Under the pieces are notes generated by a model. That model searched no databases. It was not told the DNA's origin and saw only the letters and a list, made by a program, of their open reading frames with translations. DNA of 30,471 nucleotides from a virus, in the IMG/VR virus record IMGVR_UViG_3300045988_009951, positions 1 to 30,471 of that record. One strand, given 5' to 3'. Of this stretch, positions 4,459-30,471 are shown piece by piece (the stretch's first letter is position 1; every line of letters starts with the position of its first letter). A program made the position numbers and the translations under genes.

Positions 4459-4962
4459 ATGTTAAATTCGGTCTGCCTTGTTGGTCGCCTAACCCGTGAC
4501 CCCGAACTTAAATATACAGGTAACAATATCGCAGTAGCATCTTTCAGCCTTGCGGTTAACCGTAACTTCAAGGACGCTAACGGTGAACGGGAAACAGATT
4601 TTATCAATTGCGTTATCTGGCGCCAGCAAGCTGAAAATTTGGCTAACTGGGCTAAGAAGGGTGCATTGATTGGAATCACTGGACGCATCCAAACCCGTAG
4701 CTACGAGAATCAGCAAGGTCAACGAGTGTATGTAACCGAGGTGGTCGCTGAGAACTTCCAAATGTTGGAGAGCCGTGCAGCGCGTGAAGGTGGTAGCACT
4801 AACCAAGGCAACACATCGGGAGCGTCTGGCAATGACAACGGCTATGCAGGGCCTTACGGTCAGCAAGCACCGCAACAACAAGGGCCAAACTTTGCAAGAG
4901 AAAGCAGGCCATACGGGAACGCAAACCCTATGGATATCACTAGTGATGATTTGCCGTTCTAA
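4459..4962 (+). CDS. ssb: Single-stranded DNA-binding protein
   Basis: OB-fold core [29 protein letters not shown]...[37 protein letters not shown]. Gly/Gln/Pro-rich tail ending in the acidic tip DDLPF. Confidence 0.95.
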
Positions 4963-27810: not shown

Positions 27811-28530
27811 ATGAGTAAAATTGAATCAAGTATTGCACGCATGCACCATCTACAATCAATTCCGGTTCATTATGACATGGGTGACCGTTACGGAAACGAC
27901 GCTGACGGCGACGGACGCATCGAATTTGACTGCTCATCAGCGGTAAGCTATGCACTCGAAATCAACTTAAATAACAACACGGAATCACTTCAACAAGCAT
28001 TGCCAGCGATTGGGTATGCGAAAGTGTTTGACGCTGTAGATGGCACATTCGATGGTCAACGTGGGGACGTTGTCATTTGGGCACCTCGTGACGGCTCAAG
28101 CTCGCTCGGTGCGTTTGGCCACGTATTGATTATGACTAGTGATAGCACAGCTATCCATTGCAATTATGGAATGGACGGTGTGACTGAAAATGATTATAAT
28201 TATATTTGGGATCTAAATGGCCGTCCTCGTGAAATTGTATTCCGTGAGAGTGGTACACCTCTTCCAGCACCAGTCCAAAGCGAATTTGAGCGTGAATTAG
28301 ATGTCAATACACGCTTAGAGAAGTCAGACAAGCCTTACTATGAAGGCACACTTACCACTGACTACTACGTTGAAGCTGGTCCTCGCATCGATAGCCAAGA
28401 CAAAGAATTTCTTCCAGCGGGCACAAGAGTCCGTGTTTATGAGAAACTAAACGGCTGGTCTCGAATCAACCACCCAGACAGCGCTCAATGGGTTGAAGAC
28501 CAGTATTTGGACGATTGCACAGATATGTAA
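27811..28530 (+). CDS. Endolysin: N-terminal Amidase_5-type peptidoglycan hydrolase plus C-terminal SH3b-like wall-binding domain
   Basis: FDCSSAVSYAL (catalytic Cys), QRGDVVIW and FGHVLIM (His) match streptococcal phage Amidase_5 lysins as recalled. The C-terminal GTRVRVYEKLNGWSRINH is SH3b-like. No signal peptide. Confidence 0.85.
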   Translation: MSKIESSIARMHHLQSIPVHYDMGDRYGNDADGDGRIEFDCSSAVSYALEINLNNNTESLQQALPAIGYAKVFDAVDGTFDGQRGDVVIWAPRDGSSSLGAFGHVLIMTSDSTAIHCNYGMDGVTENDYNYIWDLNGRPREIVFRESGTPLPAPVQSEFERELDVNTRLEKSDKPYYEGTLTTDYYVEAGPRIDSQDKEFLPAGTRVRVYEKLNGWSRINHPDSAQWVEDQYLDDCTDM

Positions 28531-28619
28531 TTAATTAGACCACGAAAAAATAAAATAACAAAAAGGAGTACATCACCTCCCCTCACACTGCAATAGGGAT
28601 ACCATGGCAGTAGTGGTCG

Positions 28620-28647
28620 AAGCCCTGGCATTTGCTGGGGCTTTTTT
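28620..28647 (+). terminator. Rho-independent terminator of the lysis operon
   Basis: AGCCCTGGC-ATTT-GCTGGGGCT (9-bp stem, two G-U) followed by T7. Confidence 0.85.
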
Positions 28648-28659
28648 TATTTGGTATAA
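28631..28659 (+). promoter_or_regulatory. Candidate promoter with a perfect extended -10 (TGGTATAAT) and weak -35 (TTGCTG, 17-bp spacer)
   Basis: TGG TATAAT at 28651-28659. The -35 candidate at 28631-28636 lies inside the 3' arm of the preceding terminator. Confidence 0.35.
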
Positions 28660-28695
28660 TAGTATTGGTTTTGAGAATAGCCTTCATAGGTAGAC

Positions 28696-28721
28696 GCCGC
28701 CCCTTTTATGGGCGGTTTTTT
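28696..28721 (+). terminator. Second rho-independent terminator
   Basis: (G)CCGCCC-CTTTTAT-GGGCGG(T) followed by TTTTTTATTTT. Confidence 0.8.
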
Positions 28722-28759
28722 ATTTTGCAAAAAAAATCTAAGTTTCTTTATCAAAAGTG

Positions 28760-28788
28760 TTGACAAACTATCATATATGATATATAAT
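28760..28788 (+). promoter_or_regulatory. Consensus sigma-70-type promoter (TTGACA-17 bp-TATAAT) with a 14-bp perfect palindrome in the spacer
   Basis: TTGACA 28760-28765, TATAAT 28783-28788. TATCATATATGATA 28769-28782 is its own reverse complement. Confidence 0.8.
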
Positions 28789-28821
28789 ATACATGTAAGA
28801 TAAAGAAAGGGAGTAAGAACC

Positions 28822-29157
28822 ATGAAAAAAGAACTTATGACAAACGCTTGGGAAATCGCAAAAGAAGCTGCTAAAAAATTTGGCGGTAAAGCTATCGAAT
28901 ACATCGCAGGAGCAATGAAAATGGCATGGGCTGCTATCAAAGATAGTGACACTAGCCTTGCTAAATTCCAAGCAGTTGAAGCTAAAATGCGTAAATCTGG
29001 TAAATGGTCAATGGTTGAAGTGCTTGATTCTGCTAAAGTGGTTAAATTCAACGAAGTAATGCACAAAGTAGGTGCTTACTACGGTATCGAAGTAGTAGCT
29101 GACGGTTCTAACATCGGTACTTACTACATTTCTGAAAAAGTTTGGGACGTAGCTTAA
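28822..29157 (+). CDS. Moron operon gene 1: unknown cytoplasmic protein (111 aa)
   Basis: AAGGGAG RBS. Codon choice dominated by GCT/GGT/CGT/TAC/ATC/GAA/AAA, as in highly expressed genes. Helical Ala/Lys-rich N-terminus (NAWEIAKEAAKKFGGKAIEYIAGAMKMAWAAIK) and a beta-rich C-terminus. No TM helix or signal peptide. No family recognised. Confidence 0.8.
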   Translation: MKKELMTNAWEIAKEAAKKFGGKAIEYIAGAMKMAWAAIKDSDTSLAKFQAVEAKMRKSGKWSMVEVLDSAKVVKFNEVMHKVGAYYGIEVVADGSNIGTYYISEKVWDVA

Positions 29158-29177
29158 TAAAAAAAGGAGAAAATAAA

Positions 29178-29441
29178 ATGACTAAATATAAACAAGGATT
29201 GAAAGAGCAGCGTGAGAGAGTACAAGCCATTCGCAATGAAGTTTTCTCAGACAAAGCAGAAAAACTAGAAACAGATCTCGTGAGAATTGCGAACGGAGAT
29301 GTTTATAAAATCATTCCACGATTTGGGACTAAATACGAAGATAGCCGAATCATCAAATTAGATCCAGAAGATGTGGAATATCACATCGAAGAAGCTCGCA
29401 AAGTTAGAGAGCTTGCGAAAATTATGGCAAGCAAGGATTAA
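29178..29441 (+). CDS. Moron operon gene 2: unknown charged protein (87 aa)
   Basis: ATG 29178 lies 8 nt after AAGGAG. The TTG at 29142 is unlikely to be the start. No TM helix or signal peptide. No family recognised. Confidence 0.75.
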   Translation: MTKYKQGLKEQRERVQAIRNEVFSDKAEKLETDLVRIANGDVYKIIPRFGTKYEDSRIIKLDPEDVEYHIEEARKVRELAKIMASKD

Positions 29442-29458
29442 AAAAGAGGAACAAAGAC

Positions 29459-30010
29459 ATGATTATCAACAACGACATCAAAGAGTTAATCTTGGAATAT
29501 GTAGGACGTTATTTCAAGTTCGAGAATGACTTCTATAAATTGCCAAACATCAAATTCACTGACGCAAACTGGCAAAAATTCAAGAACGGTGACACTTCCA
29601 TCGAAAAAATGGGAGCAGCACGGGCGAATGCCATGCTTGATTGCCTATTTGATGATTTTGAACTTGCCATGATTGGTAAGGCTCAAATTGATTACTACAT
29701 GGATAATTCTTTAAAAATGAATATGCCATTTTACGCCTATTATGATCAATTCAAAAAACAACAACTCTTAAAATGGCTTGAAAATAGCCACGATGACATC
29801 ATTGGAGGGGCTGGCAGAATGTACACGGCAAGCGGAAACTGGATTGCTAGTGCTTATTTAGAAATTGCATTAGAATCTAGTTCCATCGGGGACGGTGGCT
29901 ATATGCTTCAAATGCGTTTCAAGAACTACTCACGAGACCCTAGACCGATACCAGCAGGTCGCCAAAATCGACTTGAGTGGATTGAAAATAATTTAGAGAA
30001 TATCCGTTAA
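29459..30010 (+). CDS. Moron operon gene 3: unknown cytoplasmic protein (183 aa)
   Basis: AAGAGGAA RBS. AT-rich relative to the structural genes. No TM helix, signal peptide or catalytic motif that I recognise. Confidence 0.8.
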   Translation: MIINNDIKELILEYVGRYFKFENDFYKLPNIKFTDANWQKFKNGDTSIEKMGAARANAMLDCLFDDFELAMIGKAQIDYYMDNSLKMNMPFYAYYDQFKKQQLLKWLENSHDDIIGGAGRMYTASGNWIASAYLEIALESSSIGDGGYMLQMRFKNYSRDPRPIPAGRQNRLEWIENNLENIR

Positions 30011-30011
30011 A

Positions 30012-30035
30012 GACTAGGTTTATCCTAGCCTTTTT
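30012..30035 (+). terminator. Weak terminator-like hairpin after the moron operon
   Basis: GACTAGG-TTTAT-CCTAGCC (5 contiguous bp plus one) followed by T5. Confidence 0.45.
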
Positions 30036-30150
30036 GTGTATTCGTGATAAATCGTTAGACATTTAATTCAAATAAAGGTACACTATAGATGTACTTTTGG
30101 ACGATTACGTGCAGAATGTTTTTGTTTTTTCTATTGTCACTTGGTAGCTC

Positions 30151-30471
30151 ATGCTGCCAAGTCTTTTTTATGCTCAATCAAGAATTTTAGTATCCTTGAT
30201 TGAAATGCTGGTCGTGCTTCTCATTATCAGTATTCTCCTTTTGCTCTTTGTACCTAACTTGAGCAAGCAGAAGGATTCTGTTAAAGAGACTGGAAATGCG
30301 GCTGTGGTCAAGGTCGTGGATTCTCAAGCAGAACTTTATGAAATGAAGAATAACAAGACAGCTAGCTTAGCCTCTCTTGTTTCAGAAGGTCAAATCACGC
30401 AAAAACAGGCAGATTCATACAATGATTACTATGCGAAACATGGTGGCGAAAGCCGCTCAGTGGCCAATTAG
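30151..30471 (+). CDS. comGC: Competence pseudopilin ComGC/ComYC with its 5' end replaced by prophage-junction sequence (probably inactivated while the prophage is integrated)
   Basis: LIEMLVVLLIISILLLLFVPNLSKQKDSVKETGNAAVVKVVDSQAELY is the conserved ComGC N-terminal helix and core. The expected basic leader and the (G/A)-F-T-L prepilin cleavage site are replaced by MLPSLFYAQSRILVS. There is no Shine-Dalgarno upstream of the ATG. Confidence 0.85.
   Translation: MLPSLFYAQSRILVSLIEMLVVLLIISILLLLFVPNLSKQKDSVKETGNAAVVKVVDSQAELYEMKNNKTASLASLVSEGQITQKQADSYNDYYAKHGGESRSVAN
30174..30203. mobile_element. Candidate attR core: inverted repeat TCAATCAAG-N12-CTTGATTGA at the phage/comGC junction
   Basis: 9-bp perfect inverted repeat. 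The right arm is comGC coding sequence (L-I-E of the conserved LIEML). ComGC-like sequence is absent to the left of it. Confidence 0.5.

Follow-up and report, generated by a model that had tools for sequence, protein, structure and literature searches.

What do the last three genes of a prophage, lying between its endolysin gene and attR, contribute to their carrier? The question is raised by the 30,471-nt stretch of DNA analyzed here (the window; positions 1 to 30,471 of the IMG/VR virus record IMGVR_UViG_3300045988_009951), in which these genes, called g1, g2 and g3 below, form an operon. An earlier interpretation made from the letters alone (the sequence-only reading) had found the three proteins unrecognisable, proposed that they serve anti-phage defence, superinfection immunity or competence control, and rated the operon the best candidate in the window for an undescribed system. 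Our analysis indicated that its function is anti-CRISPR (Acr): with a probability that we put at roughly 85%, it is an acr operon, of the kind also called 'variable region', in a prophage of Streptococcus salivarius, with AcrIIA6 as the effector. Loci of this kind were described in Hynes 2018, Song 2022 and PMC13575424. The main value of the result is corrective, since the operon that had been rated highest as a possible undescribed system is, on this reading, a textbook acr locus. The elements at issue are as follows.

28760..28788, plus strand: sigma-A promoter of the acr/'variable region' operon, TTGACA-17-TATAAT, agreeing with the consensus at 12/12 positions
28768..28783, no strand: probable operator, CTATC-N6-GATAT, occupying the spacer of the promoter as far as the -10 element
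28822..29157, plus strand: g1, 111 amino acids, leader gene of the Phage_Gp111 family
29178..29441, plus strand: g2, 87 amino acids, 'orf13' family, ATG at 29178
29459..30010, plus strand: g3, 183 amino acids, AcrIIA6

The evidence that carries this reading comes from g3. A phmmer search matched g3 to PDB entries 6EYY, 6EYX and 6RJ9 over residues 1-183 of both proteins (E 4e-104), and 153/183 residues were identical, in a gap-free alignment, to AcrIIA6 of phage D1811 (PDB 6EYY); the minimum identity among AcrIIA6 alleles is 76.5% (Hynes 2018, PMC6060171). g3 also matched phrog_4964 (E 1e-112), and genes identical to it in metagenomic contigs carry the precomputed assignment PF28149:AcrIIA6. 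Our local copy of Pfam-A gave no family for g3, and a Pfam-only screen with that copy would miss AcrIIA6. The protein is full length, and its N-terminal 75 residues align gap-free with few substitutions, indicating that the helix-turn-helix (HTH)/dimerisation region is retained; truncated AcrIIA6 without this region loses the inhibition of interference (PMC13131331). Judged by sequence, g3 is AcrIIA6, and it is predicted to be an allosteric inhibitor of St1Cas9-type (CRISPR1) Cas9. Profile searches thus placed g3 in a well-known family, an outcome that the sequence-only reading had itself named as speaking against its hypothesis. Nor are the proteins unrecognisable: AcrIIA6 has solved structures, g1 belongs to PF07410, and a homologue of g2 was assayed in 2022.

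The surroundings of g3 also correspond to known acr loci. The segment from the promoter through g1 is 80-95% identical at the nucleotide level to the post-lysin region of S. thermophilus and S. salivarius phages, a region named the 'variable region' in a Nucleic Acids Research 2026 paper (PMC13575424). Sfi11, Sfi18 and Sfi19 carry gp111-gp183 there, with gp183 annotated as AcrIIA6; in D4276 a gp111 homologue is followed by AcrIIA5; P7602, P5641 and CHPC577 have gp111-AcrIIA25-AcrIIA6; and in the S. salivarius temperate phage SA-TP2 the order is endolysin, a 111-amino-acid gene, AcrIIA6 and integrase. Hynes 2018 (PMC6060171) found AcrIIA6 by cloning the gene downstream of the conserved gp111 gene, and it was this position that led to the discovery; AcrIIA6 neighbourhoods were later mined for candidate Acrs (Song 2022). 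Co-conservation of the triad had been put forward as a check, and it failed: g1, g2 and g3 assort independently across phages, and no co-inherited triad was seen. An obligate three-protein complex is ruled out by the same observation.

The fresh result of our comparison is that a motif embedded in the promoter tracks AcrIIA6 and not the leader gene. The 14 bp at 28769-28782, TATCATATATGATA, make up a perfect palindrome wholly within the promoter spacer, as the sequence-only reading had pointed out; its meaning derives from its position and comparative conservation, not from its rarity. About 200 loci were retrieved by querying with each of the three genes and with the promoter pattern. Alignment of their upstream regions revealed a constant -35 element, -10 element and 5'-untranslated region (5'-UTR), and spacers that fall into discrete palindrome types. 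All of about 65 distinct AcrIIA6 operons, which are related by descent and so are not independent counts, had TTGACAAACTATC-N6-GATATATAAT or a one-mismatch variant, irrespective of the leader (gp111, orf10, orf14 or none) and of whether the gene for the anti-CRISPR-associated (Aca) protein Aca12 followed. The motif was present in 0/15 operons without AcrIIA6; their spacers carried TTGAC-N4-GTCAA (with Aca12 or AcrIIA5), TATAGTAnATGTACTATA (with Aca13-fused AcrIIA31.1) or TTGACGnACGTrAAG (with AcrIIA31-Aca12). A search of IMG/VR with the exact operator pattern gave 60 matches, of which 50 had AcrIIA6 at most 2.6 kb downstream, 2 lay just behind AcrIIA6 and 8 lay at contig ends, so that the evaluable occurrences adjoined AcrIIA6 in 52/52 cases. 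Among related loci the half-sites are preserved, and it is the 6 bp between them that change.

The two half-sites are centred 10 bp from each other, and the operator extends over the spacer and just into the -10 element; this spacing and position fit repression by an HTH dimer. The gp111 protein is not the determinant of operator specificity, because it is 96-98% identical between loci with different operator types, and as an operator-binding regulator it was also rejected because the same operator occurs with other leaders or with none. Searches of the 30.5-kb window by tblastn with Aca11, Aca12 and Aca13 gave no homologue, and the sole HTH in the operon is the one inside AcrIIA6. The operon has the strong promoter with an overlapping inverted repeat, directly 5' of acr genes on the same strand, that characterizes Aca-regulated acr operons, but not their dedicated aca gene. 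The crystal structure of AcrIIA6 has an N-terminal HTH dimer that can be superposed on C.Esp1396I in complex with DNA, and bio-layer interferometry assays showed DNA binding by AcrIIA6, although this binding was not reported as sequence-specific (PMC6060171); AcrIIA6 is counted among the bifunctional Acr/Aca proteins in PMC10901769. We therefore lean, by a modest margin over even odds, towards the view that AcrIIA6 binds TATC-N6-GATA and represses its own operon, as the comparison of sequences suggests. Autoregulation had already been proposed by the sequence-only reading, and a strong promoter with a probable operator makes it plausible.

In several loci a second promoter and operator of the AcrIIA6 type lies directly 3' of acrIIA6, before orf11 or orf12-Aca12 units (L016/L188, about 4830-4910; L162, 6435-6463; and L116), which suggests one regulator for several anti-defence transcription units. 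CTATC-N6-GATAT is a precise candidate for the AcrIIA6 operator and the first of three modest leads. If the assignment is true, it completes AcrIIA6 as a self-regulating Acr, and since the motif also precedes the orf11 and orf12-Aca12 units, it could be used to mine further anti-defence operons.

The leader gene g1 belongs to Pfam family PF07410 (Phage_Gp111; E 1.8e-26, 93.4 bits versus a cutoff of 27.1 bits), with residues 4-110 aligned to profile positions 1-116 of 117, and it also matches phrog_8487. Its product is 79% identical to 'orf1' of phage P7602 (ARU14016.1), which was toxic in Escherichia coli, so that its Acr status was left open (Song 2022). The claim that g1 uses the codon set of highly expressed genes held: 20/24 two-fold pyrimidine-ending codons end in C, versus about 50% in other phage genes, and the fractions of GGT and GCT are 0.75 and 0.71. 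The protein is basic (isoelectric point 9.0), and so are the proteins encoded by orf10 and orf14, which lead other acr loci in place of gp111; Pfam and PHROGs scans of such alternative leaders gave only families of unknown function. Comparison of g1 with PDB sequences returned only noise. No single Acr gene is as widely conserved as gp111, which heads operons with AcrIIA6, AcrIIA5, AcrIIA25 plus AcrIIA6, AcrIIA31.1 (the Aca13 fusion) and AcrIIA31 plus Aca12. It is the most conserved and, by prediction, the most strongly expressed gene of such loci, and is the second lead.

Two further observations concern the build of the leader proteins. In AcrIIA31-Aca12 loci (L059-L063) the gp111 homologue at about 2507-2737 is N-terminally truncated to 69 amino acids, so that just the beta-rich half at the C-terminus (residues 30-108) is left; gp111 may thus consist of two separable modules, one per half. 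gp111 (N-terminus of g1, 28822-28940), orf10 and a 132-amino-acid S. mitis open reading frame (ORF; L145, 4489-4884) share an N-terminal helical motif, '…(E/N)A(L/W)K/E.AW…K'. An hhalign comparison of the gp111 profile with orf10 gave a weak match (44.6% probability) with the 'ALKxAW' motif in common, and remote homology among these three leader genes is possible.

The middle gene, g2, is the third lead. Its product is 68% identical to 'orf13' of Song 2022 (WP_124788532.1; E 9e-42) and had no significant match in Pfam, PHROGs, PADLOC, NCBIfam or PDB sequences. The AlphaFold2 model is confident (predicted local distance difference test score, pLDDT, 90.9; predicted template modelling score 0.75) and consists of a helix (2-22), a small four-stranded sheet and a second helix (63-85). 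The family comprises 45 clusters at 90% identity; a profile search of 1.84 billion representative proteins found 10 relatives (representatives at 50% identity), all small and of the same type, and tblastn against 50,697 GenBank phage records gave no match. The relatives always lie in acr loci, in the orders orf10-g2-AcrIIA6(-Aca12), orf14-g2-AcrIIA6, orf13-AcrIIA31-Aca12 and orf13-Aca12. Genomes of S. oralis, S. pseudopneumoniae and S. mitis carry orf13-AcrIIA31-Aca12 or orf13-Aca12-like-orf2, and even behind a family member of only 41% identity the next gene is Aca12-like. In P5641 and CHPC577 the slot of g2 is taken by AcrIIA25. Relative to nearly all of its relatives, g2 here is three codons shorter near the N-terminus (29178-29190; MT---KYKQ versus MTTYKEYKQ), and at least 10 metagenomic contigs carry a g2 with the identical 87-amino-acid product. 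By BLAST against the Table S1 set of Song 2022 together with AcrIIA4 and AcrIIA5, g1 and g2 matched only the non-validated candidates orf1 and orf13; this comparison covered AcrIIA4, AcrIIA5 and AcrIIA24-32, with AcrIIA33-36 and the AcrIE/AcrIIIA proteins of Johnson 2025 outside the set. As a well-folded protein limited to acr loci, of which one homologue has been assayed, on three Cas9s, g2 may be a mobile anti-defence cassette aimed at a target other than those three, an assignment that we hold tentatively, at slightly less than even odds.

Our favoured explanation assembles these elements as follows. With the operon isolated from late lysis transcription by two terminators, the consensus sigma-A promoter would drive immediate-early expression upon infection, and by analogy with Sfi21-type prophages the operon would probably continue to be expressed in the lysogen. 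For the homologous lysin-attR genes of S. thermophilus temperate phages, the passage of PMC6237837 that cites Ventura 2002 reports transcription in lysogens, and by this analogy the proposed prophage-stage expression appears probable. AcrIIA6, whose relatives bind the REC lobe of St1Cas9-type Cas9 as a dimer, would allosterically lower the DNA binding of that Cas9 and so guard the phage against type II-A targeting, both as an infecting genome and as a resident prophage. The suspected link to phage-host immunity would thereby persist, in the form of counter-defence. TATC-N6-GATA would probably serve as the operator for the N-terminal HTH dimer, making AcrIIA6 a combined Acr and Aca that represses itself once the protein accumulates. 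In this scheme g1 (gp111) would be a conserved leader with very high predicted expression and not an operator-specific regulator, and g2 (orf13) a mobile cassette for an anti-defence protein aimed elsewhere than the three Cas9s tried. A fuller version, in which g2 is a new anti-defence small fold (directed, for example, at type III-A or I-E CRISPR or at some non-CRISPR system that oral and gut streptococci carry), AcrIIA6 is an autorepressor and gp111 is a broad early counter-defence or takeover factor, is doubtful as a conjunction of all three.

Several points weigh against this explanation, and they concern the operator and the first two genes. We found no paper that defines an AcrIIA6 operator or AcrIIA6 binding to it; perfect palindromes of at least 14 bp are not rare, with 4 in the window versus about 2 expected by chance; and the association of operator and AcrIIA6 could reflect linkage of the promoter module among loci of common descent. 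The palindrome might then be bound by something else, be it an early regulator of the Cro type, the repressor of the prophage or a factor from the host, or have no regulatory role and accompany AcrIIA6 as part of a recombination module, and besides the interferometry result cited above, the overlap of its right half-site with the -10 region, which is constrained anyway, is compatible with this. However, leader genes have been exchanged repeatedly in the position between promoter and AcrIIA6, which speaks against simple linkage, and the motif is kept across all four leader-gene states. It is found, moreover, in at least four phage backgrounds with different early and lysogeny modules, namely Moineauvirus, Brussowvirus, Piorkowskivirus and S. 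salivarius prophages with tyrosine or serine recombinases. The left half-site, ACTATC, is preserved in a normally unconstrained spacer whose central 6 bp vary; other operon types have other palindromes at the same place that track their own HTH proteins, and binding of Aca12 to its own inverted repeat was demonstrated by electrophoretic mobility shift assay (PMC13551039); Cro promoters have a different palindrome. A binder other than AcrIIA6, or none, consequently seems to us unlikely, if far from negligible.

With regard to the first two genes, the AlphaFold2 model of g1 is mediocre (pLDDT 66.6): the helical hairpin at the N-terminus is modelled with confidence, but the beta meander at the C-terminus is poorly defined; Foldseek gave no match to PDB at E < 0.08, and the C-terminal half of the model is untrustworthy. 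Assays of the orf13 homologue in E. coli showed no inhibition of SpyCas9, St1Cas9 or St3Cas9 (Song 2022), and an anti-defence role for g2 is suggested by guilt by association alone. For the g2 model the best Foldseek values were E 0.31 in PDB and 0.09 in BFVD, which is no significant fold match. The structure comparison proposed by the sequence-only reading thus produced no significant match for either protein. It is conceivable that g1, g2 or both are early host-takeover or regulatory factors, such as basic nucleic-acid-binding proteins that affect the translation or stability of acr mRNA or shut down some host function. The basic charge of gp111, orf10 and orf14, the extreme codon optimisation of gp111, the toxicity of its homologue, its conservation beyond that of any single Acr and the inactivity of the g2 homologue in the Acr assays would all agree with such a role. 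On the other hand, g2 is confined to acr loci beside Acr or Aca genes, even in its 41%-identical member; the leaders are interchangeable or absent in functional AcrIIA6 operons and are thus not needed for AcrIIA6 expression; and no DNA- or RNA-binding domain was detectable in g1 or g2 by Pfam or Foldseek. We regard host takeover or regulation as a minority prospect for these two genes.

The original proposal of a prophage-encoded, autoregulated system for anti-phage defence, superinfection immunity or competence control, in which three novel proteins act together, is very improbable: it could draw on the lysin-attR 'lysogenic conversion' slot, on an own promoter with the lysogen expression reported for the homologous module, and on the disruption and rebuilding of comGC by the prophage, but g3 is AcrIIA6, PADLOC gave no match for g1, g2 or g3 (E up to 1), the genes assort independently, and the module also occurs in the strictly virulent phages Sfi19, D1811 and P5641, where superinfection immunity would be senseless.

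The boundaries of the operon are listed below. The endolysin gene occupies 27811-28530, and two T-run hairpins separate it from the operon downstream.

28619..28654, plus strand: first intrinsic terminator of the lysis cassette, hairpin 28619-28644 with an 11-bp stem (6 GC pairs), then a T-run
28696..28726, plus strand: second intrinsic terminator, hairpin 28696-28716 with a 7-bp stem (6 GC pairs), then a T-run
30014..30038, plus strand: weak terminator-like hairpin at the operon end, hairpin 30014-30028 with a 5-bp stem, then CCTTTTTGTG
30039..30207, no strand: right prophage arm to the attR junction, matching the circular/attP form in the related locus L005 and diverging beyond

Most of the architecture described by the sequence-only reading was borne out. 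The tandem terminators that close the lysis operon are present and jointly insulate the acr operon from late transcription; the second is also kept 5' of the promoter in related loci. The promoter is, as claimed, a textbook one, the sole perfect consensus match in the 2-kb region scanned, and its conservation extends to about 70 distinct related loci; perfect consensus sigma-A early promoters have been described upstream of variable regions 3' of the lysin (PMC13575424). The three genes are tightly packed, with gaps of 20 nt (g1-g2) and 17 nt (g2-g3), and the ribosome-binding site reported for each was confirmed by the Shine-Dalgarno motifs GGGAG, AAGGAG and AGAGGA, 8-9 nt 5' of the starts of g1, g2 and g3. 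The hairpin and T-run said to end the operon exist, but the hairpin is weak. The AT-richness ascribed to g3 relative to the structural genes was likewise seen, but it is common to all three genes (GC 0.38-0.39 versus 0.41-0.47). The picture of an accessory operon with transcription of its own, situated between lysin and attR, also agrees with our map, which places the operon about 170 bp inside the right prophage end.

Two side observations concern the promoter region. Loci of all four operator types share the 5'-UTR seen at 28789-28821 (…GTAAGATAAAGAAAGGGAGTAAGAACC-ATG). For acr-aca12 operons PMC13551039 predicts an RNA motif in the 5'-UTR, to which this conserved stretch may correspond; when 28400-30471 was scanned against Rfam, every match was below threshold and of the kind expected by chance. 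Antisense to the promoter and g1, a TTG-initiated ORF of 139 amino acids extends over 28647-29066 on the minus strand; it overlaps a conserved coding gene as well as the promoter, and most likely it is spurious.

The prophage end lies within comGC. Compared with L005, the DNA is phage-identical up to 30207, save for a 1-nt indel in a T-run. The last 57 nt of the prophage arm form the first 19 codons of a hybrid comGC (30151-30471), whose product is the exact protein annotated from an S. salivarius metagenome-assembled genome. In circular-form contigs a 480-amino-acid serine recombinase gene directly follows AcrIIA6. This large serine recombinase accounts for the integration in comGC (window 30039-30471 compared with L005, 6834-8491), and the host is S. 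salivarius. The hybrid ComGC starts with MLPSLFYAQSRILVSLIEM followed by LVVLL…, which replaces the native prepilin leader and the usual A|FTLxE cleavage motif. Competence-pilus function may be altered in lysogens.

Among known systems, the closest is the acrIIA6 locus of D1811, Sfi19 and Sfi11 (Hynes 2018). It shares with the window operon the post-lysin position, the same promoter and operator at 80-95% nucleotide identity, a gp111 leader (77-80% amino-acid identity) and a 183-amino-acid AcrIIA6 (83-84% identical). The window differs in having the extra 87-amino-acid gene between gp111 and AcrIIA6, and in belonging to a temperate element of S. salivarius that is integrated in comGC and has a large serine recombinase. 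The operon of P7602, P5641 and CHPC577 (Song 2022) has the same three-gene layout, promoter and operator, with a variable middle gene of roughly 90 amino acids; that gene is unrelated to g2, however, and encodes AcrIIA25, a validated inhibitor of SpyCas9 and St3Cas9.

The streptococcal acr-aca12 and acr-aca13 operons resemble the window operon in genomic slot, -35 and -10 elements, 5'-UTR and leader genes (gp111, orf13), whereas their promoter palindromes are TTGAC-N4-GTCAA and TATAGTAnATGTACTATA, and they encode a dedicated or fused Aca HTH protein of a kind not found in the window. With the bifunctional Acr-Aca proteins (AcrIIA1, AcrIIA13-15 and AcrIF24) the window shares an Acr that bears an HTH, a strong promoter with an inverted repeat and the lack of a separate aca gene. 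Unlike theirs, the autorepression of AcrIIA6 is proposed here from comparative genomics, and the HTH of AcrIIA6, in a further difference from those proteins, is also the dimer interface for Cas9 inhibition.

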